DNA of 64,000 bases from an uncultured Bacilli bacterium (GTDB lineage Bacteria; Bacillota_I; Bacilli_A; RF39; UBA660), in assembly GCA_934154785.1 (NCBI GenBank), contig CAKPGL010000001.1, forward strand, positions 366,477 to 430,476. The letters run 5' to 3'. The position numbers and the translations under genes are program-made. How positions within the stretch are numbered: position 1 is the first letter of the stretch; each line of letters opens with the position of its first letter. Positions 16,393 to 49,752 of the stretch are shown here, piece after piece. The notes under the pieces were generated by a model. It made no database searches, was not told the origin of the DNA, and was given only the letters and a program-made list of their open reading frames with translations.

Positions 16393-16980
16393 ATGGAAAA
16401 CAATGATAAGAAGTTTAGAGCTTTAGCGATAGCTGCTATATGTATTGCAATAGTTGGTATTTCAATTGCGTATGCTGCATTAGGTGCTGTATTAAATGTA
16501 ACAGGTACTGCTACTGTTAGTACAGCAAACTCTTGGAATGTTGCGGCAACACAAGGTAGTTGTACTAAAACTGCTGGTAGTCCAAGTGTTACTAAAAATT
16601 TAACTACTGTTGGTCAAACTGCTACTTGGTCAGCTTCATTTGTTGCTCCGGGGGATCAAATAACTTGTACATTTGATTGGACAAATTCTGGTAGTATCGA
16701 CGCAGCAGTTACAAATTTAGTTGTTAATGCTAGTGGCGACGCAAAAGATTATTTTACTTATAATGTTACAATGGGAACTACAGCTTTAAGTGCAGTTGTG
16801 CCTAAAAACAAATATTTAAAAGCTGGTAGTACAAAAACTGTTACTATGGTAGTTACATTTGATGAAAATAGCAACTTAACAAGTCAACAATTAGCTGACC
16901 TTGATACAAAATCTGCAACATTTACAGCTGCTTTTGAATTTGAACAAGCAGATAGTAGTATTACTTATACCGAATTATAA
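16393..16980 (+). CDS. TasA/camelysin-like secreted protein with a SipW-type signal peptide (paralog 1)
   Basis: Basic N-terminus, a hydrophobic segment and VAYA|ALGAVLNVTGTATV. It is immediately upstream of a SipW-like peptidase. Conserved C-terminus ATFTAAFEFEQADSSITYTEL. Confidence 0.5.
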   Translation: MENNDKKFRALAIAAICIAIVGISIAYAALGAVLNVTGTATVSTANSWNVAATQGSCTKTAGSPSVTKNLTTVGQTATWSASFVAPGDQITCTFDWTNSGSIDAAVTNLVVNASGDAKDYFTYNVTMGTTALSAVVPKNKYLKAGSTKTVTMVVTFDENSNLTSQQLADLDTKSATFTAAFEFEQADSSITYTEL

Positions 16981-17069
16981 TAGTTAAAAATTGTGATAGT
17001 CGCTCGCGTTATTATAACCTTTTTAACGTCCATATACAGATATTGATATTATAGATAAGGAAGAAAAAT

Positions 17070-17666
17070 ATGGGAAAAGATAGAAAATTTAGAACATTAG
17101 CTATTGCTGCAATTTGTGTAGCTATAGTTGGCGTATCAGTTGCATACGCAGCATTAAGCGCAGCATTAAATGTAACAGGTACTGCTACTGTTGATACAGC
17201 AGGTTCTTGGAATGTTACTCCTACACCTGTAAAATGTACAGCAAAAAATGGAGCATATTTCATAACAGGAGAAGAACATGTAACTACTAAAGATTTTACT
17301 GCAGTAGGTGGAACTGTTAATTGGGATGCAACATTTACAGCACCAAAACAATCAGTAACTTGTACATTTAGTTGGACTAACGGTGGTTCAATTGATGCTG
17401 CTGTTAAAAAATTAGTTGCTACAGTTAATGGAACTCAAGCTGCTAATTTTGATTACACAGTTACAATGGGAAATACAAAATTAACTCCAACTACACCTAA
17501 TAATAAGGTTTTAAAAGCTGGTAGTACAAAAAATGTTACAATGACAGTTATCTTTGATAAAGATGGTAAACTTGAAACATTACCTACAACAGAAGAAACT
17601 GCAACATTTACAGCTGCTTTTGAATTTGCACAAGCAGATAGTAGTGTAACTTATACTGAATTATAA
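17070..17666 (+). CDS. TasA/camelysin-like secreted protein with a SipW-type signal peptide (paralog 2)
   Basis: Same N-terminal motif (KFRTLAIAAICVAIVGVSVAYAALSAALNVTGTATV) and the same C-terminal ~22 aa as paralogs 1 and 3. Confidence 0.5.
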   Translation: MGKDRKFRTLAIAAICVAIVGVSVAYAALSAALNVTGTATVDTAGSWNVTPTPVKCTAKNGAYFITGEEHVTTKDFTAVGGTVNWDATFTAPKQSVTCTFSWTNGGSIDAAVKKLVATVNGTQAANFDYTVTMGNTKLTPTTPNNKVLKAGSTKNVTMTVIFDKDGKLETLPTTEETATFTAAFEFAQADSSVTYTEL

Positions 17667-17684
17667 AAAATAGGAGATATTAAA

Positions 17685-18284
17685 ATGGAAAAAGATAGAA
17701 AATTTAGAGCATTAGCAATTGCTGCAATTTGTGTAGCAGTAGTTGGTGTATCAGTTGCATATGCTGCATTAGGTGCTGCATTAAATGTAACAGGTACTGC
17801 TACTGTTAGTACTAAAGATTCTTGGAATGTAGTCGCTACAAATGCTACTTGTAGAGCTACAGGACAAGCATATTTCTTAGGAACAGATGACCAACATTTA
17901 ACAGAAAAAGTATTTAATGTTGATGGAACTTCATTAACTTGGGATGCAACATTTACCGCACCAAAAGATGCTGTAACTTGTACATTTACTTGGACTAATG
18001 GTGGTTCAATTGATGCTGCTGTTAAAAAATTAGTTGCTGATAAATCAGGAACTCAAGCTGCTAATTTTACTTATGATATTAAAATTGGTGATACTGCTAT
18101 TACTACAGAAAATATAACTGGTAAATACTTAAAAGCTAAAACTTCAAAAGAAGTTACAATTGTTGTTACTTTTGATAAAGATGGTAATCTTACAACATTA
18201 CCTACAACAAAAGAAACTGCAACATTTACAGCTGCTTTTGAATTTGCGCAAGCAGATAGTAGTACAACTTATACAGAATTATAA
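17685..18284 (+). CDS. TasA/camelysin-like secreted protein with a SipW-type signal peptide (paralog 3)
   Basis: Same conserved N- and C-termini. The central ~100 aa diverge between the paralogs. Confidence 0.5.
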   Translation: MEKDRKFRALAIAAICVAVVGVSVAYAALGAALNVTGTATVSTKDSWNVVATNATCRATGQAYFLGTDDQHLTEKVFNVDGTSLTWDATFTAPKDAVTCTFTWTNGGSIDAAVKKLVADKSGTQAANFTYDIKIGDTAITTENITGKYLKAKTSKEVTIVVTFDKDGNLTTLPTTKETATFTAAFEFAQADSSTTYTEL

Positions 18285-18300
18285 TATTAAAGGGATGTGT

Positions 18301-18324
18301 GAGCAAAAGGAAATCCTTTTGCTC
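18301..18324 (+). promoter_or_regulatory. stem-loop between the subunit genes and the peptidase gene; possible partial terminator or attenuator
   Basis: gagcaaaagg-aaat-ccttttgctc, a 10-bp stem with no downstream T-run. Confidence 0.3.
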
Positions 18325-18370
18325 TCATATCGATTATGTATTTAATACAAGAATATTAAAGGGTGATAAA

Positions 18371-19528
18371 ATGATGATGAGATTAAAAAAAATCTTTAAT
18401 AAAGCATATCTAATGCAATTTTTAATAGTTATCATGGTTTTATTTAATATTTTTGTATTAAATACGTATAGACTAAATACTTGGTATCCAACATTATATT
18501 GGGTTGCTTTAGCAATTATTTCTTATTTGATATTTGGATTAAGGAATAGGGTTCCATCCAAATTTATTGATGTTATACAACTTGTATTTATTTATTGTAT
18601 GGGATATGAACTTATTACTTATCTTTCTGGGTTGATACTGGGGTTTGTAAGAAGTCCTTATTCAATGCAAATAGTAACAATGATTAAAAATATAGCACCA
18701 TTTTTGGTTATGATCATTGCACAAGAAATAACAAGATATGCTGTAGTTACTAGATATAAAAAAAATAAGTATGTTCTGGTATCAATAACGATAGCGATAA
18801 TCTTATATGAAATATCTTATAGTATTGGTTCATATGATTTAAAGTCAGCAGCTGAGATCGTAAAGATGTTAACTATATTGGTTGGTGGCTCAATAACAAA
18901 AAACTGCTTGTGCTCTTATCTTGTATATAGAGCTGACTATAAACCGTCTATTTTATATAGATGTGTATTTGAACTTATTATTTATGTAGTACCTATATAT
19001 CCAAATTTAGGAGAATATATAGAAGCTATGGTAGCTATGATATTTCCAGTATTGCTTTTAGTTTCTATAATGGGATTATACGAGAAAAAGAAATATCGTA
19101 AAGAAAAGAAAACTTGGTTTGAGATGGTTGTTTTGTGGATTCCATCAATTATTGTAATGCTATTTATAGTGACATTACAAACAGGAGTATTTAAGTATAA
19201 AACAATGGCAATTGGTTCTCAATCAATGTATCCTAATATTAATAAGGGTGATGTTGTAGTAATAGATCAGTTCAAAGATGAGGAAAGATGCAAAGAAGTA
19301 GTTGAAGGGGAAGTTTTGGTATTTAAACATGATGGTATTATTATAGTTCACAGGGTTGTTAAAATAACTAAAAAGAATAATAGGTATATATTTAATACCA
19401 AAGGTGATAATAATAATGCTAAAGATTCTTATGATATAGATCAGTCACAGGTAGTTGGAGTTGCCAAGTTTAGAATTCCATTCATTGGTGGTCCATCCGT
19501 TTGGTTGAGTGAAACAATTAACGGTTAG
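18371..19528 (+). CDS. ER/archaeal-type (SipW-like, S26B) signal peptidase I domain fused to an N-terminal ~300-aa polytopic membrane domain of unknown function
   Basis: C-terminal ~110 aa carry GSQSMYP (catalytic Ser), IIVHRVV (His) and TKGDNNNAKDSYD (the GDNN motif typical of SipW/Sec11-type peptidases). The N-terminal part has about 8 hydrophobic helices. Start taken at MMMRLKK after a GGGTGA RBS. Confidence 0.65.
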   Translation: MMMRLKKIFNKAYLMQFLIVIMVLFNIFVLNTYRLNTWYPTLYWVALAIISYLIFGLRNRVPSKFIDVIQLVFIYCMGYELITYLSGLILGFVRSPYSMQIVTMIKNIAPFLVMIIAQEITRYAVVTRYKKNKYVLVSITIAIILYEISYSIGSYDLKSAAEIVKMLTILVGGSITKNCLCSYLVYRADYKPSILYRCVFELIIYVVPIYPNLGEYIEAMVAMIFPVLLLVSIMGLYEKKKYRKEKKTWFEMVVLWIPSIIVMLFIVTLQTGVFKYKTMAIGSQSMYPNINKGDVVVIDQFKDEERCKEVVEGEVLVFKHDGIIIVHRVVKITKKNNRYIFNTKGDNNNAKDSYDIDQSQVVGVAKFRIPFIGGPSVWLSETING

Positions 19529-19542
19529 AAAGGAATGTATTT

Positions 19543-20709
19543 ATGAGTAATGGTAAAGAAAAGAGTTTAAATACTGAAGAGCAAGAAAAAGTTATAATGA
19601 TTAATGATAATAAGAATGATAAGAATAAAAGTAAACTTAATAAGAGAATTTATATAGATACTCCACTTAGGATATTTGTATTAGCTGGTTTTGTATTTAT
19701 ATTTGCTTTTCTTTCATTAATATTTTTGAAAAAAGGATTGGAAACAAAAACATATACTAGTATTTATTATAGTGAAAAAAGTAATCTAGATTATAAGGTT
19801 TACCTAAAAGAGAATCCTTATTTCAATGAACCTTTTCTTACTAAAGGTAATCAGTATATAGCAAGTTTGATTAATTATATTGATGCGGATTTTAGTTATG
19901 ATTTTAGTGCATCTAATTTAATTGATTACCAATTTCGTTATTTAATTAAAGCTGATGTTACAGTCTATGAAAAAGGAGATACATCTAAGATACTTTATAA
20001 GTCATCTGATACTTTACTTCCAGAAAAAACAGTTCAATACTCTGGAGCAAGTACTTACTCTATTAGAGAGAATGTAAAAATAGATTATGATAAATATAAC
20101 AATATTGTATCATCATTTAAGAGGGATTACTCTTTAGCATTAGAGAGTCAATTAAAGGTTACATTATATGTATTTATGAATGGTACTTATAAAGAGATTA
20201 AACAACCATTATCATCTTCTCAAAATATGAGTTTAACTATTCCATTAACTGAACAAACAATTAATATTTCTATGAATTATAAGGAAGTTAATGATGCTAA
20301 CGTTGTTGAGGAATATTCAAATGTTGAAACAATAAATATTGTATTCTTTGTATTATTTGGTGTATCACTTATTGCTTCATTAGTATTAACTGTTAAATTA
20401 GTTAGATTCTTAAATAAAATTAAGACTAAAGGTACTGAGTATGATAGAATATTAGGAACAATTTTAAAAGATTATGAAGGTATAGTAGCACGTGTTAAAA
20501 AAGTTCCAGATTTTAGTGGTAGAACAGTTATTGAGTTAGAAACTTTTGATGAGATATTGGATATTAGTGAAAAACTAGATAAACCAATCCTATTCATAGA
20601 AATGCATAAACATCAAAAGAGTTGGTTTATAATTGTTAATCATAATGAAATATATAAATATTCTTTAAAACTAGTTGATGTTGATAAAGCTAGTAACGAA
20701 AAGAAATAA
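19543..20709 (+). CDS. bitopic membrane protein (hypothetical), a candidate accessory or anchor component of the fibre locus
   Basis: Charged N-terminus, a TM helix at about residues 45-65, a ~190-aa extracytoplasmic domain, a second TM helix (INIVFFVLFGVSLIASLVLTV), then a ~100-aa cytoplasmic tail. Last gene before a terminator. Confidence 0.4.
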   Translation: MSNGKEKSLNTEEQEKVIMINDNKNDKNKSKLNKRIYIDTPLRIFVLAGFVFIFAFLSLIFLKKGLETKTYTSIYYSEKSNLDYKVYLKENPYFNEPFLTKGNQYIASLINYIDADFSYDFSASNLIDYQFRYLIKADVTVYEKGDTSKILYKSSDTLLPEKTVQYSGASTYSIRENVKIDYDKYNNIVSSFKRDYSLALESQLKVTLYVFMNGTYKEIKQPLSSSQNMSLTIPLTEQTINISMNYKEVNDANVVEEYSNVETINIVFFVLFGVSLIASLVLTVKLVRFLNKIKTKGTEYDRILGTILKDYEGIVARVKKVPDFSGRTVIELETFDEILDISEKLDKPILFIEMHKHQKSWFIIVNHNEIYKYSLKLVDVDKASNEKK

Positions 20710-41643: not shown

Positions 41644-43329
41644 ATGAACAAGAAATTAACAAAAACAATACTTAAAAACTGCAAGAAAGAGATTACTCTT
41701 GAATTCTTGGTATGTATAATACTTCGAGGAATATTACTTATAATTCCTATTTTATATAGTAACGCTATTAATTTTGCATCAATAACTTTATATGAAAAAG
41801 CTATTCACATGATAATAATATATGTAGTTGTTATAACTATTTATAAAGTTACTGAATATTTACGCCAAAGAACATTTTATAATTTATATAACAAAATGTA
41901 TAAAGAATATACTGTTAAAGCAGTAGAAAATACTTGTGCTAATTCTATATTTAGTTTATCAAGATTTACTACTGGGGAGTATATGAATATTTTAAATAGT
42001 GACATAGATACTATTTGTAGTTTTTTCTGCAATGCTGTATATAGAAGTGTTCAAATCTTAGAATTTGCATTTATATATTATTATTTTTATACTATCAGCT
42101 TGGAGTTATTTATTGTATCTGTTATATCTTCAATTATAGTTCTTTTGGGTATCTTATTATTTGGTAGACGTTTAGAAAAACTAAATAAAAAAAGAAAAGA
42201 TAGCTTAGATATAAAGACTGGTATTGTAAATGATATTTTTGTTGGTATAAAGGAAATAAAAGGTTTTAATATTTTAAACTTTGTTAGTAAAAAAGTAGAA
42301 ATTGGTGCTGATGAATATGTTAGTGCTAATGCTAAGTATAATAGAGAATATAATTTATCTAATATAATTGCTATATACATATTTGAAATAATACGTTTAG
42401 TAATGTTGATATATGGTATTTATATGATTAAAGATGGATATATGGAAATAGGTATTTTAATGATAATATATAGTTATTTCCAAAAAATAATTGATAACTT
42501 TACTTTAGTATCAACTGTTAATGTAGAATATCGTAGTTTAAATGTATCTTTAAAAAGATATAATAAGATAGTTGAATATGCTAGAAAGAGTATCGAAGAT
42601 GGTAAATTTATAGATAATAATGATACTAATGGCAAAATAGAATTTAAAAATATTTTATATGGATATAAGAATGACCCAGTATTAAAAGACTTTAATCTAA
42701 AGATAAGAGAACATTCTATTTATTCTATTACTGGTGTATCTGACAGTGGCAAAATGGGTATATTTGAATTATTATTAAAACTTAATCGTCAACATGAAGG
42801 TAATATATTAGTAGATAATAATGAAATATCTGAAATAAATGATGAAGCATATTATAAATTAATATCTTATGCTAGAAGTAATCCTATATTTTTTGATTGT
42901 AGTATTAGAGATAACTTAATGCTTGTTGAACCAGACTTTTCTAAAATAGAAAAAGTATGTAAAATGGTTAAGGTACATGATGATATTTTAAAATTAAAAG
43001 ATGGATATGACACAATAATTGGTACAGATTGTACAGTACTTTCATCTACAACAAAGAAATTATTATCAATAGCGAGAGTTATACTTAAAGATAGTCGTAT
43101 TTTATTATTTGATGAAATAATTGATTCATTAGATAAGACTAATAAAAAAAATATTATTAAAGTATTACAAAAATTAAGTGAAGAACATACAATTTTAATT
43201 ATTACTCGTGATAAGGGTATATTAAAATTATCTGATGAAATAATTCTACTTGATCAAGGAAAGGTAGAAGCAGTAGGTAGACATAACGAACTTATGGAAA
43301 CCAGTGATATTTATAAACAACTTTATTAA
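41644..43329 (+). CDS. ABC exporter-type half-transporter (TMD-NBD) with degenerate nucleotide-binding motifs
   Basis: Six N-terminal TM helices. Walker A reads GVSDSGKM (no Ser/Thr after the Lys). The signature position reads LSSTTKK instead of LSGGQ. Walker B is ILLFDE. GGAGG RBS. Confidence 0.55.
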   Translation: MNKKLTKTILKNCKKEITLEFLVCIILRGILLIIPILYSNAINFASITLYEKAIHMIIIYVVVITIYKVTEYLRQRTFYNLYNKMYKEYTVKAVENTCANSIFSLSRFTTGEYMNILNSDIDTICSFFCNAVYRSVQILEFAFIYYYFYTISLELFIVSVISSIIVLLGILLFGRRLEKLNKKRKDSLDIKTGIVNDIFVGIKEIKGFNILNFVSKKVEIGADEYVSANAKYNREYNLSNIIAIYIFEIIRLVMLIYGIYMIKDGYMEIGILMIIYSYFQKIIDNFTLVSTVNVEYRSLNVSLKRYNKIVEYARKSIEDGKFIDNNDTNGKIEFKNILYGYKNDPVLKDFNLKIREHSIYSITGVSDSGKMGIFELLLKLNRQHEGNILVDNNEISEINDEAYYKLISYARSNPIFFDCSIRDNLMLVEPDFSKIEKVCKMVKVHDDILKLKDGYDTIIGTDCTVLSSTTKKLLSIARVILKDSRILLFDEIIDSLDKTNKKNIIKVLQKLSEEHTILIITRDKGILKLSDEIILLDQGKVEAVGRHNELMETSDIYKQLY

Positions 43330-43449
43330 CGTAGGTTAAATATATTTACAAAAAGATAAAAGTTTTATATAATTGATATGTAATAAAAATAAGGGTAGTG
43401 ATAACATGACTAAAACTATTATAATAAATGATTTACAATTTGTTAACCA

Positions 43450-43458
43450 AGGGGGGGG
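43450..43458. repeat. G9 homopolymeric tract, about 115 bp upstream of the 43572 start codon
   Basis: A run of nine G in a genome of about 27% GC, lying between the ABC gene and the large secreted-protein gene. Confidence 0.9.
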
Positions 43459-43571
43459 GTTATAGTCATACCTTAGTAAATAATAAAGACACAAATAGCA
43501 GTTGGAGGTAAGCTCTAATTTGTTTTTTTGTGTCTTTTTGTTGTAATTAAATAAGGAAAGGAAGAATATCT

Positions 43572-45203
43572 ATGAAAGATAGAAATAAAAGAAAATTAAT
43601 AATATACGCTTTAGTTGGAGTATTGATGCTAACTACAGTTGCGTATGCATCATTACAAACAATATTAAATGTATCAGGTACCGTAGTAAAGAAAGGTAAC
43701 TTGTGGAATATATATTTTACTAATTCCAGTAGTGCTAGTATAGTAGGAACAGCAACAGGTAGTAGTTTAAATATACAAGCATCTAAATTAGATTTTTCAG
43801 TAAGTTTATATAAACCTAGAGATAAAGTAAGTTATACAGTAGATATAAAAAATGGAGGAACTATAGATGCCGTATTAAATAGTATATCCTTAACAGGATT
43901 AGATACTGCAAAAAGTAATAGTCTAAATTATACAGTAACATATTCTAATGGAAGTACTATAAAAGAGGGAGATACTTTAAATGCTGGATCAAGTAAGACA
44001 ATAAAGATAACAGTAGAGTTTGATAGTAGTGCGACTAGTTTACCAGAAAGTGATGTTAACTTAACATTTGGAGTAACCCTAATATATGGACAAACCACAA
44101 GTAGTAGTTCTACTGGAACTAGTGGAATAACAAGTAATAATGTTATTGCGGGAATATATGGGAATAGTACTCAAAATGGAACCCCAACGCCAACTAGTCC
44201 AGTAGAGATACAAAGTGTAGGTGAAAAAAGTACTAATTTAATTCCATTTAATTATACTTCGAGAACTAAAAATGGTGTTACTATTACAGTAAATAATGAT
44301 GGCTCATTAACTTATAATGGTACCGCTACAGCTAGCGTTTCATATGAATTGTTTAATGGAAAGATGTCATTGGTTGAAGGAAAAAAATATTATTTTTCAG
44401 ATTGCTACGCTCAGTTGAATGGTCAATCTGGAAATATTATGACAAATGGTTATACAGCTAAGTCTGGAGATTATATCAGTTTAATTTGGATTTGGAATGC
44501 ATCAGGAACAGTATTTGATAATGTCGTAAAAAAACCAATGATTTCTAATAATCAAATTACAAGTTCTAATTATGAACACCCGGGTTATAAAGTACCAATT
44601 ACAGCAAGTAATGGAAGTGATACTAAGACAACAAACATTTATTTAAAAGAACCATTACGTAAAATGGGAGATTCTGCCGATTACTTAGATTTAACAAATA
44701 AGAAAGTAGTAAGAAATGTAAAAGAGTATAAAATTACTGGTAAAGAACAATGGGCACTAGTTTGGACAACTGATACGACTACAATTTATAAATCAGAGTC
44801 ATTGTTTACTGATGCAAAACCTAATAGTAATAAAACAACTATAGGGACAAAGTCCAATAAATTGGGAGCTATTAGTTACGATGGTTATTCTGCTGGTGTT
44901 GCTTCTATGTGGCAAATAAGAAAAAATGACAATTACAAATATCAAGTAGCAATTAATTACTATAATAATTCTTGTGGTAGCCTTTTTATAAAAAATATAG
45001 ATTATAAATCAGATGTTTCAAACTTTAAGAAATGGTTAAGTGATCAATACGATAGTGGAGATCCCGTGTTAGTGGATTATATCTTAACAACACCAACCGA
45101 AGAAAGTGTAAATATACCAGAGCTACCAAGTCTTACCGGTAATGTAACATACAGTATAGGTACAAGTATAAAACCAAGTAGTATAAATTATACTACTAGA
45201 TAA
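43572..45203 (+). CDS. large secreted protein: SipW-type signal peptide, then a TasA-like N-terminal domain, a Ser/Thr-rich linker and the shared C-terminal module
   Basis: N-terminus KRKLIIYALVGVLMLTTVAYASLQTILNVSGTVV...WNIYF matches the signal motif of the three paralogs at 16.4-18.3 kb. Residues ~40-175 align with those paralogs (for example DIKNGGTIDAVLNS vs SWTNGGSIDAAVKK). The C-terminal ~330 aa are shared with the next gene. Confidence 0.55.
   Translation: MKDRNKRKLIIYALVGVLMLTTVAYASLQTILNVSGTVVKKGNLWNIYFTNSSSASIVGTATGSSLNIQASKLDFSVSLYKPRDKVSYTVDIKNGGTIDAVLNSISLTGLDTAKSNSLNYTVTYSNGSTIKEGDTLNAGSSKTIKITVEFDSSATSLPESDVNLTFGVTLIYGQTTSSSSTGTSGITSNNVIAGIYGNSTQNGTPTPTSPVEIQSVGEKSTNLIPFNYTSRTKNGVTITVNNDGSLTYNGTATASVSYELFNGKMSLVEGKKYYFSDCYAQLNGQSGNIMTNGYTAKSGDYISLIWIWNASGTVFDNVVKKPMISNNQITSSNYEHPGYKVPITASNGSDTKTTNIYLKEPLRKMGDSADYLDLTNKKVVRNVKEYKITGKEQWALVWTTDTTTIYKSESLFTDAKPNSNKTTIGTKSNKLGAISYDGYSAGVASMWQIRKNDNYKYQVAINYYNNSCGSLFIKNIDYKSDVSNFKKWLSDQYDSGDPVLVDYILTTPTEESVNIPELPSLTGNVTYSIGTSIKPSSINYTTR
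44173..44699. repeat. 527-bp direct repeat copy A (~95% identical to copy B; contains a ~230-bp stretch that differs at one base)
   Basis: Codes the shared module TPTPTSPVEIQSVGEKSTNLIPFNY...YLDLTN inside the 43572 gene. Confidence 0.85.
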
Positions 45204-45220
45204 TAGAAAGAAGTGATAAA

Positions 45221-46588
45221 TTGAAAAATAAAGGATTTACTTTAGTAGAACTACTAGCGGTGATAGTAGTTCTATCTATTATCGCTTTAATAGGATATTC
45301 TGCAGTAGGAAATGTAATAAGTTCTACACAAGATAATAGTAATAAGATAACTATGAAAAATTACGCTAAAGCGGTAGATCAAGCGGTGTTCTTATATGAA
45401 ATGAATAATAGTGATAGTAATTTATCAGAATTAAATGCAAACTGGCTAAAAGAAAATGTTAAATTTGAGAAAGCAACCGTAGAATGTGAATATGCAACAT
45501 ATGATAAAACAAGTAGTTTATATGGATGTAAAGTAAATGATAGTGATAAGACATATTGTTATATTAGTGATACAGCAGTTGAATGTAATAAAGATAAATT
45601 ATCTAAAATATATGGAGAAAGTATCCAAAATGGAACACCAACTCCAACTAGTCCAGTGGAGATACAAAGTGTTGGAGAAAAAAGTACTAATTTAATTCCA
45701 TTTAATTATATTTCGAGAACTAAAAATGGTGTTACTATTACAGTAAATAATGATGGCTCATTAACTTATAATGGTACCGCTACAGCTAGCGTTTCATATG
45801 AATTGTTTAATGGAAAGATGTCATTGGTTGAAGGAAAAAAATATTATTTTTCAGATTGCTACGCTCAGTTGAATGGTCAATCTGGAAATATTATGACAAA
45901 TGGTTATACGGCTAAGTCTGGGGATTATATCAGTTTAATTTGGATTTGGAATGAATCAGGTACAGTATTTGACAATGTAGTAAAAAAACCAATGATTTCT
46001 AATAATCAAATTACAAGTTCTAATTATGAACACCCGGGTTATAAAATACCAATTACCGTAAGTAATGGAACAGAAACAAAGACAACAAATATCTATTTAA
46101 AAGAACCATTACGTAAAATAGGAGAATATGCTGACTATTTAGATTTAACAAATGGTAAAGTAACAAGATATGTAACAGAAGTAGTATTTACAGGAAGTGA
46201 AACATGGAGTAAATATACAAGTGTAAGAAATCATTATCAAATAACTGTAAATAATAATTTTTTTGATATACAAAATAATTTAATTCTATCGAATTATTAT
46301 AATAACACTAATACTAAAATTAATTATTATTCGTCAGCAGATTATGATGTAATTTCTGCCGATGGCTATAGAATAAGATTTAAAAATAAAGATATTGAAA
46401 CTTTAGAAGAATGGGAAAATCATGTTTTAAATAAATATAATAGTGGGATACCAATAAAAGTAGTTTATGTATTAATGGCACCAACTGAAGAAAGCATAGA
46501 CGTACCAGAAATACCAAGTCTTACAGGTAATGTAACTTATAGTGTAGATACAAGTATAAAGTCTAGTAAAATGGAATATGGATATTAA
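45221..46588 (+). CDS. type IV pilin-like protein (class III prepilin signal) carrying the same C-terminal module
   Basis: TTG start. MKNKG|FTLVELLAVIVVLSIIALIG is a canonical prepilin peptidase site, with Glu at +5. The downstream ~330 aa are near-identical to the C-terminal part of the 43572 protein. Confidence 0.6.
   Translation: MKNKGFTLVELLAVIVVLSIIALIGYSAVGNVISSTQDNSNKITMKNYAKAVDQAVFLYEMNNSDSNLSELNANWLKENVKFEKATVECEYATYDKTSSLYGCKVNDSDKTYCYISDTAVECNKDKLSKIYGESIQNGTPTPTSPVEIQSVGEKSTNLIPFNYISRTKNGVTITVNNDGSLTYNGTATASVSYELFNGKMSLVEGKKYYFSDCYAQLNGQSGNIMTNGYTAKSGDYISLIWIWNESGTVFDNVVKKPMISNNQITSSNYEHPGYKIPITVSNGTETKTTNIYLKEPLRKIGEYADYLDLTNGKVTRYVTEVVFTGSETWSKYTSVRNHYQITVNNNFFDIQNNLILSNYYNNTNTKINYYSSADYDVISADGYRIRFKNKDIETLEEWENHVLNKYNSGIPIKVVYVLMAPTEESIDVPEIPSLTGNVTYSVDTSIKSSKMEYGY
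45626..46153. repeat. 527-bp direct repeat copy B
   Basis: See copy A. The offset between copies is about 1453 bp. Confidence 0.85.
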
Positions 46589-46600
46589 TTAATAGACTAG

Positions 46601-46628
46601 AAAGCTCTTTTGAAATAGAGCTTTTTTT
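46601..46628 (+). terminator. rho-independent terminator
   Basis: aaagctct-tttgaaat-agagcttt followed by T6. Confidence 0.6.
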
Positions 46629-46656
46629 GGTATAATATTATTAGTGAGATGGTTAT

Positions 46657-49113
46657 ATGAAAAAAAATAAGAATATTTCTATATTATTAATTATAGGTTT
46701 AATACTTTGTTTAATTTCTATTTTTAGTGGAAAGTTATTTGGTTCTAATGTCGATTGGATAAATCAACATGTTACTTTTGCCAATTATTTTCGAAATAAT
46801 TTTTATAAAACAGGTAAACTTTTACCCGATATAGCATGGAATTTAGGATTAGGACAAAATATATATAATTTTTCTTATTATGGATTATTAAATCCTATTA
46901 TTCTTATTTCTTATTTACTTCCTTTTATTTCTATGACTAATTATATAATGATTAGTAATATTATTTTATATTTACTAAGTATATACTTATTTTATAAATG
47001 GGTTAGTCCAAAATATAGTAGTAAACTATCACTATTATTAACCACTATATTCATGCTTAGTGGACCATTATTTTACCAATTTCATCGTCAAATAATGTTT
47101 GTAAATTATATGCCATTTTTACTTTTGAGTTTAATAGAAATAGATAAAAATAGAAAGAGTAGTTTATTTTTACTAACTATATATATTACTTTAATAATAT
47201 TAAGTAGTTACTATTATAGTGTAGGAGCTATACTATGCATAATAATTTATTATATATTTGTTCATTTTAATGATAGTATTCATGAAAAGTTAAAAATATT
47301 TATTCCTATTATAATTAGTGCTTTGTTATCAGGCATATTAATTATTCCAACTATTGATACTATTATAAGTGGTAGAAATGATATTAAAACTAGTATCAAT
47401 TTGTTAAATTTATTTATTCCTAACTTTGCAATTGGTAAAGTTATATATGGTTCTTATACCTTAGGAATTACTGCAATAATTATACCTAGTTTAGTTAGTT
47501 TATTAGTAAGTAAGGATAAAAAAAATAAATATTTAGGAGCGATTTTGTCAATACTTATTATATTTCCTATTTTTAGATATTTACTAAATGGTTGTTTATA
47601 TATTCGTAGTAAGGCTTTAATACCATTTTTACCATTATATATATATGGAATAGGTATATTTATAAAAGATTGTATTAATAAAGACGTAGATTATAAGTTA
47701 GTAATAAAAGTAACTTTAATAATTGCTTTATTAGGTTTAATTACAGGTTACTTTAATCTAGGATATTATTTAGATATAATTCTTTCTATAATTATCTTGA
47801 TGCTATTTATAAGTGATAAAAAAATATTATCTGGTTTCATAATTATTATCGAAATTCTTGCTATGTTTGTTGCATTTAATATTGATGAAAAATATGTAGA
47901 TAAAAGTGAGTATAATTCTTGGAATTTATACCAAGAAGAGTTAAGCAAGGTTATAGAAAATGATAGGTCTATTTATAGAATATCTGATGTACTAGAACCT
48001 ATTAACAATATTAATTATATTGGAGTTAATAATTATTATAAGGCTTCTTTATATTCATCTACTTATAATTATTACTATTATAATTTTTATCATAATACTT
48101 TAAATGCTAATAATATAACTTATAATCATCTTATGTTAGCGGATACTACAAATTTAATTATGAACCGTTTATTAGGAATAAAGTATATTGTAAGTAATGA
48201 GAAGTTAAATTTTGGATATAGTTTGTTAAGCAACAAAGATAATTTTTATTTATATAAGAATGATTATGCTTTACCTTTAGGTTACGCAACTAATAGAGTA
48301 TATAATAAAGATAGTTTTGCATCATTAAATTATCCTTATAATTTAGAAGTATTACTAACAGGAATAGTTACTGATAATTATACAAATTTTAATTTGGAAT
48401 ATACAAAAGTTCTTGATACTAAATATAATATAACTTTAGGAGATAATATTAGTGTTAGTAATAATGATGATTTTAGTATAGTTCAAGTATTAAAAGATTC
48501 TAGTATAAATTTGTCTTTTAATGAAGTAATTGCCAATAAATTATTATTTATAGAAATTAGTGGATTAGAAGAAAATAGCTGTAATACAGAACTTAGTATT
48601 GAAATAAATGGTGTTAAAAATAAATTAACATGTAAAGAATGGGGGTACCCTAATAAAAATAATACATTTCATTTTTTAGTTAGTGATGATGATATTTCTT
48701 CTTTAAATATTAATATTTCTAAAGGAATTTATAAAATAACAGATTTAAAATTATATACAATGGATAAAGATGTTCTTAATAAAGAATTTGATTTAATGGA
48801 AGATATTCAAATTAATGATAATAAACTAATTGGTAATATTAATGTTACCGATGATGGTTATATGGTTTTATCTATTCCATATGATAAAAACTTTATTGTA
48901 AAAATAGATGACAATGTTGTAGATTATGAATTAGTTAATTCAGGATTTGTTGGCTTTAAAATAAATAAAGGAAATCACAACATTGAACTAACTTATGTAA
49001 ATAGCAAAAAAACTTTAGGTATAATTAGTAGTTCAATCGGTTTATTATGTTTATTTATTTTAATTATTTTTAATTTAAAAAATTATAAATCAATTGACAT
49101 TTTAAAACAATAA
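46657..49113 (+). CDS. YfhO-family GT-C fold membrane glycosyltransferase
   Basis: N-terminal region SGKLFGSNVDWINQHVTFANYF...NLGLGQNIYNFSYYGLLNP matches the YfhO family (B. subtilis YfhO-like). About 13 TM helices plus a large C-terminal extracytoplasmic domain. Confidence 0.75.
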   Translation: MKKNKNISILLIIGLILCLISIFSGKLFGSNVDWINQHVTFANYFRNNFYKTGKLLPDIAWNLGLGQNIYNFSYYGLLNPIILISYLLPFISMTNYIMISNIILYLLSIYLFYKWVSPKYSSKLSLLLTTIFMLSGPLFYQFHRQIMFVNYMPFLLLSLIEIDKNRKSSLFLLTIYITLIILSSYYYSVGAILCIIIYYIFVHFNDSIHEKLKIFIPIIISALLSGILIIPTIDTIISGRNDIKTSINLLNLFIPNFAIGKVIYGSYTLGITAIIIPSLVSLLVSKDKKNKYLGAILSILIIFPIFRYLLNGCLYIRSKALIPFLPLYIYGIGIFIKDCINKDVDYKLVIKVTLIIALLGLITGYFNLGYYLDIILSIIILMLFISDKKILSGFIIIIEILAMFVAFNIDEKYVDKSEYNSWNLYQEELSKVIENDRSIYRISDVLEPINNINYIGVNNYYKASLYSSTYNYYYYNFYHNTLNANNITYNHLMLADTTNLIMNRLLGIKYIVSNEKLNFGYSLLSNKDNFYLYKNDYALPLGYATNRVYNKDSFASLNYPYNLEVLLTGIVTDNYTNFNLEYTKVLDTKYNITLGDNISVSNNDDFSIVQVLKDSSINLSFNEVIANKLLFIEISGLEENSCNTELSIEINGVKNKLTCKEWGYPNKNNTFHFLVSDDDISSLNINISKGIYKITDLKLYTMDKDVLNKEFDLMEDIQINDNKLIGNINVTDDGYMVLSIPYDKNFIVKIDDNVVDYELVNSGFVGFKINKGNHNIELTYVNSKKTLGIISSSIGLLCLFILIIFNLKNYKSIDILKQ

Positions 49114-49149: not shown

Positions 49150-49752
49150 ATGAGAAGAAGAAGTGAAAATAGTCGTGAAAATAAAAGATATATTAGAGAA
49201 TTAATAATTATGGCTCTTTTAGTTACTATAATTGGTTTAACTGTGTCTTATGTTGCAGCAAGTACAGCCTTTAATATTGTTGGTATTTCAAATGTTAGAA
49301 CGGCAGATTGGAATGTTGGCTTTTCTTCTGCTAAAGTTGTAGCAAAGACAGGTGATGTCAATATAATAAATGATCCTAAGATATCAGGTCAAACTATTAA
49401 TTATGAAGTTGGATTAAAAAATGAAGGCGATAGTGTCACGATTGAAGCTATAGTAAAAAACTATGGAAATTTAGATGCTAAATTAAATTCTTACGTCATT
49501 ACAGGAATTACTAGTAATTATCAAAATAATGTTAGTTACAAGATAACTGATAAAAATGGTAGTGAATTAAAAGAAAACACTATTTTGAAAAGTGCGGAAG
49601 CTGATTATAATCAAAATATAATGCCAATATACATCACAATTACTTATGATAAATTCATATATGAAGATGTAGCGGGCACTATTTCATTTAACTTAGGTTT
49701 AAGTCTTAACTTTGTTCAAAATTGTACTACTTGTAATACAAATTTTAGCTAA
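49150..49752 (+). CDS. small TasA-like secreted protein with a SipW-type signal peptide (fifth member of the family in this window)
   Basis: N-terminus RELIIMALLVTIIGLTVSYVAASTAFNIVGISNVRTADWNVGF has the same motif. 200 aa. Confidence 0.45.
   Translation: MRRRSENSRENKRYIRELIIMALLVTIIGLTVSYVAASTAFNIVGISNVRTADWNVGFSSAKVVAKTGDVNIINDPKISGQTINYEVGLKNEGDSVTIEAIVKNYGNLDAKLNSYVITGITSNYQNNVSYKITDKNGSELKENTILKSAEADYNQNIMPIYITITYDKFIYEDVAGTISFNLGLSLNFVQNCTTCNTNFS

Follow-up and report, generated by a model that had tools for sequence, protein, structure and literature searches.

A gene pair of an uncultured gut Bacilli bacterium that probably carries phage-type heads on two kinds of filament subunit

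The stretch of DNA considered here – 64,000 nucleotides of contig CAKPGL010000001.1 (assembly GCA_934154785.1, positions 366,477 to 430,476), referred to below as the window – belongs to an uncultured Bacilli bacterium of the human gut, present in Hadza and other cohorts and low in guanine and cytosine (GC; 26% across the window). It contains two adjacent open reading frames (ORFs), ORF1 and ORF2, whose products begin with different filament-type domains – of the AbpX/TasA fibre type in ORF1, of the type IV pilin type in ORF2 – and continue into a common module that is homologous to phage tail fibres. We consider it moderately probable that the pair is an operon of two modular filament subunits, with phage-type, probably glycan-binding heads that are swappable as cassettes and may serve in adhesion. 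In related strains, the two partners carry matched, often base-identical heads, while the conserved segments between them differ.

A first-pass annotation of the same DNA had already proposed one payload on two filament-type N-termini, and this proposal is supported here; both ORFs lie where it had placed them, and the TTG start of ORF2 is confirmed. The two genes are read from the same strand, with 17 nucleotides (nt) between the stop codon of ORF1 and the start codon of ORF2. Their parts, including the variable regions VR1 and VR2 discussed below, are as follows (lengths of proteins in amino acids, aa; RBS, ribosome-binding site).

43572..45203, plus strand: ORF1, 543 aa, ATG start, RBS AAGGAAAGGAAG
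43650..44096, plus strand: fibre-subunit domain of ORF1, a putative N-terminal donor strand and beta-sandwich
44153..44725, plus strand: repeat copy A (junction, VR1 and core; inside ORF1), 573 nt, aligned with copy B
44223..44570, plus strand: VR1 of ORF1, aa 218-333, head cassette
44709..45080, plus strand: VR2 of ORF1, aa 380-503 (124 aa), of a type unlike VR2 of ORF2
45221..46588, plus strand: ORF2, 455 aa, TTG start, RBS-like GAAAGAAG, weaker than the RBS of ORF1
45607..46179, plus strand: repeat copy B (junction, VR1 and core; inside ORF2), 573 nt, aligned with copy A
45677..46024, plus strand: VR1 of ORF2, aa 153-268, head cassette
46163..46465, plus strand: VR2 of ORF2, aa 315-415 (101 aa)
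45043..45191 paired with 46431..46579, plus strand: second, weaker repeat (C-terminal tail), 149 nt, 73% identical

Two filament-type N-termini and a phage-type module

By prediction, ORF2 is a modular type IV pilin, because its prepilin signal scores above the curated cut-offs of Pfam PF07963 (31 bits against 21.2) and TIGR02532 (31.9 bits against 16.3). The signal, MKNKG followed by FTLVELLAVIVVLSIIALIGYS (MKNKG/FTLVELL), is of class III type, with a short, basic leader that ends in Gly, Phe at +1, Glu at +5 and a stretch of some 20 hydrophobic residues, and is thus canonical, as the first-pass annotation had it. The next-best models are those of ComGC and other pilins or pseudopilins; the ComGC model matches aa 4-73 with E = 7e-8, under its cut-off. 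Searches of the PDB with the whole protein sequences returned spurious Rab11 matches, which were discarded, and, besides these, a weak match of PilE1 (8pfb) to ORF2 aa 6-87 (E = 0.015). The leader MKNKG is followed by a pilin module (aa 6-126) and the phage-type module (aa ~127-455, 329 aa); in an alignment with 22 homologues (A1), aa 1-126, four Cys residues included, are essentially invariant. ORF2 is the sole prepilin-like ORF in the window, and its product would be cleaved by a prepilin peptidase encoded elsewhere and then displayed on a pilus of type IV or Com-like kind, the tip being the most likely place.

ORF1 starts with a signal peptide (aa 1-26, ending in TTVAYA before SLQ), followed by a predicted beta-sandwich (aa ~27-175), a Ser/Thr linker and, from aa ~195, the module. 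The beta-sandwich domain of about 150 aa is, as had been noted at first pass, homologous to four small paralogs in the window (31% identity, E = 6e-20 for one of them), and it matches no Pfam or NCBIfam model, Peptidase_M73 and TIGR04088-type models included. When a profile of the five copies in the window was searched against a library of 1.84 billion proteins, it retrieved 5809 family clusters; roughly half of the best 150 family matches are stand-alone subunits of ~175-225 aa, and the rest have C-terminal extensions of up to 1958 aa. A profile of 73 sequences (A5) then matched archaeal AbpX in the PDB (9sj2_C, E = 3.3e-5; 9rhp_A, E = 1.1e-4), as against E = 2-3 only for TasA, and the camelysin/TasA family Peptidase_M73 matches weakly in 7 of the 73 members. 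These comparisons place the domain, as far as profiles can tell, in the AbpX-like branch of the TasA superfamily, so the earlier label 'SipW-type TasA-like' holds at superfamily level, while the profile points to AbpX (3e-5) and not to TasA itself.

The window also encodes what, judged by its gene content, is a complete AbpX-type fibre locus (16393-20709), matching the published make-up of such loci and lying 23 kb from ORF1. A further, orphan subunit stands closer to the pair.

16393..18284, plus strand: three small AbpX-like subunits (195, 198 and 199 aa), homologous to the ORF1 N-domain
18299..19528, plus strand: dedicated signal peptidase I, 409 aa, with a polytopic N-terminal membrane domain and the peptidase at the C-terminus
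19543..20709, plus strand: DUF5305 protein (PF17231, E = 9.4e-13)
49150..49752, plus strand: orphan AbpX-like subunit, 200 aa, with 29% identity to the N-domain of ORF1

The three small subunits, one of which matches Peptidase_M73 weakly (E = 0.05), are probably the major subunits of the fibre into which ORF1 would be built. The peptidase, with ~7 distinct hydrophobic segments, scores 87.9 bits against the archaeal signal peptidase model TIGR02228 (sigpep_I_arch; cut-off 51.85) and E = 4.6e-19 against that of SipW, and DUF5305 has been proposed as a signal-peptidase accessory subunit of AbpX/Tafi loci (bioRxiv 10.64898/2026.01.04.697558). ORF1 would thus be exported by the Sec pathway and cleaved after AYA by this archaeal/SipW-type peptidase with its multiple transmembrane segments, whereupon the freed N-terminal strand and the beta-sandwich would join the AbpX/TasA-type fibre of the small paralogs by donor-strand complementation. 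The orphan subunit, encoded just after the yfhO gene that follows ORF2, has the cleavage motif YVA rather than AYA and is conserved in strain L001.

The module itself is a mosaic, as the alignment of pilin-type homologues makes plain: a conserved junction (SKIYGESIQNGTPTPTSPVEIQSVGEKTKNL; pattern IYG.S.QNGTPTPTSPVEI.SVG), the hypervariable VR1 (100-150 aa among homologues), a conserved core of 60 aa (..IQLEEGSTATSYEPYGYKIPITVSNGTETKTTNIYLKEPLRKIGEYADYLDLTNKKVVRNVKE), the variable VR2 (90-125 aa) and a conserved C-terminal tail (..TPTEESIDVPEIPSLTGNVTYSIGTSIKPSKIEYGY). ORF1 and ORF2 align by BLASTP with 64% identity over 356 aa (E = 3e-147), and this similarity is unevenly spread: junction, VR1 and core are ~95% identical as protein, with 290/297 identical nucleotides in the interior of VR1, and the DNA of the final 40 aa is ~72% identical, whereas the VR2 regions (124 versus 101 aa) share 53% of their nucleotides and are of unrelated types. 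The first-pass annotation had described a shared module of ~330 aa; in the window, only half of it, VR1 and the scaffold, is common to both proteins, and VR2 differs in type.

Several lines of evidence tie the module to phages. The predicted structure of the ORF2 module (predicted local distance difference test score, pLDDT, 89) gave 35 viral matches at E <= 1e-3 in a Foldseek search of the BFVD (best 3.6e-15, with modest TM-scores of 0.3-0.5), several of them annotated as tail fiber, receptor binding, BppU or distal tail protein. VR1 and VR2 are predicted to form two beta-sandwich heads resembling carbohydrate-binding modules (CBMs). Relatives of the module are encoded on 28 IMG/VR contigs, and the GC content of the phage contigs (28-31%) is similarly low to that of the window. 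In the phage-type homologues, a short N-terminus (..GVPPITLQKCKG.DL.DYKIYGNSVQNGTPTPDNPVEI.SVG) takes the place of the filament domains, and the genes stand in tail-fibre position: that of P0115 follows tail genes and precedes genes for a leucine-rich repeat protein and a CHAP endolysin, and that of P0018 follows the gene for a 731-aa tail protein and is succeeded by that for a Dp-1-type holin, with RecT farther along. Over junction and VR1, ORF2 and P0018 are 68% identical, elsewhere only 28%, so the window's own head cassette has a close phage relative. The tail of another homologue, P0065, matches the tail fibre family phrog_6782, and ORF1 matches BppA domain 1 (PF22637) at E = 0.0015, which is below the cut-off. 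By homology and predicted fold, the module can therefore be classed as a receptor-binding module of phage tail-fibre type.

The module has other carriers as well: a canonical AYF-type (SipW-like) N-terminus, other pilins (GFTLIE) and N-termini of a KGISLIVLV type without Glu5; in the two other lineages checked, such genes are single. Six proteins (P0084, P0091, P0100, P0101, P0108 and P0120) have the module on KGISLIVLVITIIV N-termini, pilin-like but without Glu5 and with a weak match to archaeal Pilin_N, which may represent a further carrier type.

The repeat, matched pairs and proposed cassette exchange

At the DNA level, the shared part of the module forms a direct repeat within the gene pair, copies A and B aligning without gaps at 534/573 positions (93.2%). 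The identity of ~95% over 527 nt (44173-44699) reported at first pass agrees with our count of 27 mismatches (94.9%); the partner copy begins at 45627 and not at 45626. The ~230-bp stretch said to differ at one base is also there, as the 233 nt of 44223-44455, with the single mismatch at 44257. This pattern supports recent conversion or recombination, in line with the gene conversion suggested earlier. The 39 mismatches of the full repeat are of all base types and fall chiefly on synonymous third positions; they therefore show no pattern of a diversity-generating retroelement, a candidate that was rejected as the spectrum is not adenine-specific, and the genes flanking the pair encode an ABC (ATP-binding cassette) transporter and YfhO. 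The window has two copies of the module junction only. A segment of 2368 bases, from the end of ORF1 through ORF2 to the start of yfhO, is base-identical across three independent metagenome assemblies.

Among the homologues, the same two N-termini recur nearly invariant, while the modules are only 35-100% identical to those of the window. (A search of genome contigs returned nothing for ORF2 alone and, for alignment A1, only relatives with pilin N-termini ~30-60% identical.) Cluster representatives of both gene types, 26 and 27 in number, are intact. In nine TasA-type proteins, VR1 has its best counterpart among pilin-type proteins at 98-100% identity and on a contig of equal listed length, as opposed to ~30% identity in other pairings, and the two genes were confirmed to be adjacent in the window and in L001, L087 and L088. 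One contig of 549,652 bp holds three pairs, each with the 17-nt spacer, and one singleton, all between housekeeping genes. Within these three pairs (those of L001, L087 and L088), the DNA of both cassettes is identical throughout – VR1 at 297/297, 297/297 and 273/273 positions, VR2 at 279/279, 252/252 and 264/264 – next to junctions that are 88-96%, cores that are 92-100% (92.4%, 97.5% and 100%) and tails that are 62-87% identical.

Identical variable cassettes beside a differing conserved core are the reverse of what simple duplication and divergence would leave. Homogenisation by the assembler is an unlikely cause, because the same assemblies keep many differences in the conserved segments, and scaffold residues specific to one carrier type, considered as a cause of the core differences within pairs, were not found in junction or core. 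VR1 and VR2 reassort independently between pairs. The pattern could be explained by cassette exchange together with conversion that is limited by homology. Heads would be swapped as cassettes through recombination in the conserved segments, phage tail-fibre genes included, and would be copied between the partner genes, so that both filaments present the same specificity. The conserved segments would recombine with every family member, probably phage genes too, and partners would drift apart there; a head, being homologous only to the head of its partner, could only be made identical to it by conversion.

Two other loci depart from the matched arrangement. The singleton P0019 (L089:8001-9614) combines a TasA-type N-terminus with the ..EYGY tail that pilin-type partners usually have, and no pilin gene follows it; it resembles what would remain of an earlier pair after deletion between its two repeats, an event that the first-pass annotation had envisaged and that P0019 makes plausible. 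At a second locus of the same species (L002:10001-13658), P0046 – a TasA-type N-terminus with the module – stands behind the same conserved leader, and 172 nt after it begins the gene of a prepilin-type protein (621 aa) whose C-terminal part is unrelated and which has no module in common with P0046; a matched partner is thus not found for every TasA-type gene. As to the organisms, one relative whose PheS/PheT are 77-78% identical to those of the window has a circular genome of 1.2 Mb.

The transcription signals around the pair are compatible with a two-gene operon.

43345..43373, plus strand: promoter-like site TTTACA-17 nt-TATAAT, with 11/12 consensus matches, called on the consensus match alone
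43380..43571, plus strand: conserved leader of ~200 nt, which aligns across all seven loci compared
46601..46628, plus strand: terminator-like hairpin after ORF2 (AAAGCTCT-8 nt loop-AGAGCTTT, then a T-run), read from the sequence

The -10 region upstream of ORF1 is kept at all paralogous loci, and the hairpin after ORF2, which is missing from the listing of the scan that gave the promoter-like site, would terminate the two-gene transcript. The leader contains a run of nine G residues (43451-43459), the sole G/C run of at least six residues anywhere in the 64 kb, which is G8 instead of G9 in L089 and in L003, the latter being the same locus as L002 from another sample. A terminator-like hairpin (43485-43539) lies just ahead of the ORF1 RBS, and the leader RNA folds with -42 kcal/mol (z = -3.2); Rfam has no match within 43000-47000. 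The poly-G run and the hairpin hint at a putative phase variation or attenuation element. An apparent 455-aa upstream gene in L125 proved to be a truncation at the contig end and was dismissed.

At the five loci examined, the flanks are free of phage genes, and each locus lies between housekeeping genes. Upstream of the pair in the window (41644-43329) is the gene of an HlyB/LssB-like ABC exporter (561 aa) that lacks a peptidase domain. L001 keeps it at this locus, and it is probably unrelated, because it is absent from the other pair loci. Downstream (46657-49113), an 818-aa membrane protein of the YfhO family has a weak match to PgfM1, by which streptococcal adhesins are glycosylated. TPTPTSP occurs in both proteins of the pair, in addition to the Ser/Thr linker of ORF1, and O-glycosylation of the pair proteins is conceivable; that the adjacent yfhO is missing at other pairs counts against such a link.

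Pilus machinery and the weighing of alternative readings

Pilus machinery is found in a related metagenome-assembled genome (MAG), L016 (CAKOTU01; ClpC 66% and trigger factor 77% identical to those of the window organism), where PilB/GspE, PilC/GspF and an A24 prepilin peptidase (PF06750, E = 4e-34, plus PF01478) are encoded within a few kb of a pilin. Across thousands of proteins from gut Bacilli, PilB of this type shows 70-90% conservation. Related uncultured Bacilli/'Tenericutes' MAGs also encode many large prepilin-type proteins (300-2674 aa), mostly far from pilus machinery – at L033:414-11446 (six in tandem), at L050:10001-18025 and in L067, L072 and L074 – and P0125, the closest small pilin, proved to be one more orphan amid housekeeping genes.

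Several observations weigh against an operon of two filament subunits with phage-type heads. The window has no homologue of PilB, PilT, PilC, PilD or PilM by phmmer, as the first-pass annotation had remarked for pilB/C/D; a search seeded with the PilB of L016 gave at least 8000 highly similar matches, none of those listed assignable to this genome; and most pilin-like genes in related MAGs lie far from the machinery. The calcium-binding donor strand of AbpX has an aromatic amino acid in position 2 and an acidic one in position 4 of the mature protein (bioRxiv 10.64898/2026.01.04.697558), a motif absent from the predicted mature N-termini of ORF1 (SLQTILNVSGT, thus SLQTIL without either residue) and its paralogs (ALGAALNVTGT). 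No Pfam or PHROG family covers the module in ORF1 or ORF2, and no close solved homologue exists; we infer glycan binding from the fold only, because the module lacks such a homologue or a family assignment. Finally, VR2 is unmatched in the window pair, so head matching is not obligatory; with VR1 matched and VR2 of two types, this looks like a half-updated pair.

A bolder version of the dual-filament operon, which we regard as possible though rather unlikely, would make it a programmable attachment system: matched copies of phage-traded heads, borne by a retractile type IV pilus as well as by a static donor-strand fibre and encoded by several poly-G-leader operons per genome, so that capture and holding share one switchable specificity, possibly for other bacteria or kin. 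It is unlikely, to a somewhat greater degree, that the heads bind the cell's own surface or that of its kin – the same receptor as that of the cassette-bearing phages – and so bring about aggregation or block phage adsorption, with variability driven by an arms race. The phage tail fibre with the VR1 type of the window at 68% identity, the similarly low GC content of the cassette-bearing phage contigs, the role of TasA-superfamily fibres as cell-cell bundling matrices and the difference of ~70% between the heads of different strains would all suit such self-recognition, yet adhesion to host or foreign glycans fits the data equally well. We are about as doubtful of a prepilin N-terminus that is a mere secretion or anchoring device, leaving only ORF1 filament-borne. 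Class III signals on archaeal sugar-binding proteins and pseudopilin-like surface anchoring offer parallels, as does the scatter of large prepilin-type proteins among housekeeping genes in related MAGs; but ORF2 keeps, beyond the signal, the complete invariant 126-aa pilin module with its four Cys residues and resembles ComGC and PilE1, PilB, PilC and PilD are found beside a pilin in the related MAG, and bulky modular pilins are known to assemble at pilus tips (PMC8179133).

Two more readings concern the genes rather than the filaments. One gene might be the working copy and the other mainly a cassette reservoir, conversion switching specificity as in pilE/pilS; we judge this quite improbable. 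The conversion-like tracts with breakpoints in conserved segments, the presence of several loci per genome and the poly-G tract, suggestive of on/off switching, are what one would expect of a reservoir, but both genes have start codons, an RBS and complete conserved N-domains in all 26 + 27 representatives, unlike silent pilS copies, which are without N-termini, and a partner that is usually identical in its cassettes adds no diversity. That the pair is what is left of a prophage, its members being decayed tail-fibre genes without a function in the cell, is scarcely credible and was rejected on genomic context: the module is homologous to phage tail fibres, but its genes lie amid housekeeping genes at all five loci, the N-termini are cellular filament domains and not tail-attachment domains, and independent samples show both ORFs intact and with the same bases.

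Should the operon of two head-bearing filament subunits prove real, a small-genome uncultured gut lineage would diversify its surface specificity by borrowing the receptor-binding domains of phages. It would also allow one to ask, in a natural setting, whether two unrelated filament systems act together on a single ligand, and would yield a set of interchangeable heads whose ligands would be accessible through recombinant protein, without culturing.

Comparison with known systems

Each of the components – modular pilins, and TasA/AbpX-type fibres with tip proteins – is already known, and it is their combination that appears new, as we found no description of it. Literature searches returned no account of one operon mounting the same binding heads on a pilin and a TasA/AbpX-type fibre, no report of partners that are base-identical in variable cassettes, nor of such cassettes being shared with phage tail fibres, and public sources hold no names for these proteins.

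The closest counterparts of ORF2 are the type IV pilins of Streptococcus sanguinis that are modular in the sense of Raynaud et al. (PMC8179133): PilB with a vWA module and PilC with a concanavalin-A-like, glycan-binding lectin module (PMC8179133, PMC9934059). They share with ORF2 a small class III pilin module, a short linker, a bulky ligand-binding module, a monoderm host and the expected tip location. However, the module of ORF2 is of the two-head phage tail-fibre type rather than vWA- or concanavalin-A-like, and ORF2 lies outside a pil operon, is multi-copy and hypervariable between strains, and is paired with a non-pilin fibre subunit bearing the same kind of heads.

For ORF1, the nearest relatives are the AbpX-type loci of archaea and Bacillota, which comprise a signal peptidase I with 10 transmembrane segments, DUF5305, minor subunits and varied 'predicted tip proteins' (bioRxiv 10.64898/2026.01.04.697558). 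The make-up of the locus at 16393-20709, the match of the family profile and the layout of ORF1, a fibre subunit with a distal domain, agree with these. By contrast, ORF1 lies 23 kb away in an operon of its own with a pilin, its donor-strand motif differs, and its payload is shared with the pilin and with phages. The tapA-sipW-tasA system of Bacillus subtilis (PDB 8aur) is more distant: TasA gives no significant match (E = 2-3), ORF1 does not match Peptidase_M73, there is no TapA, the peptidase found here has a large polytopic extension, and TasA has no payload module.

With the tail fibres and receptor-binding proteins of Firmicutes phages (e.g. the BppU/BppA/BppL tripod of Tuc2009, PDB 5e7t), the pair has in common the conserved linkers flanking swappable CBM-like beta-sandwich heads, the mosaic evolution, the direct homology to genes in tail-fibre position and the weak match to BppA domain 1 (E = 0.0015). 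It differs from them in that the tail-attachment N-terminus of ~65 aa is replaced by cellular filament domains and that the genes are chromosomal, amid housekeeping genes. As in Neisseria pilE/pilS and Mycoplasma vlp/vsa, there are several loci per genome, cassette-wise recombination and a leader homopolymer tract that varies between samples; unlike in these systems, there are no silent truncated copies, whole folded domains vary, and the partners are kept identical.

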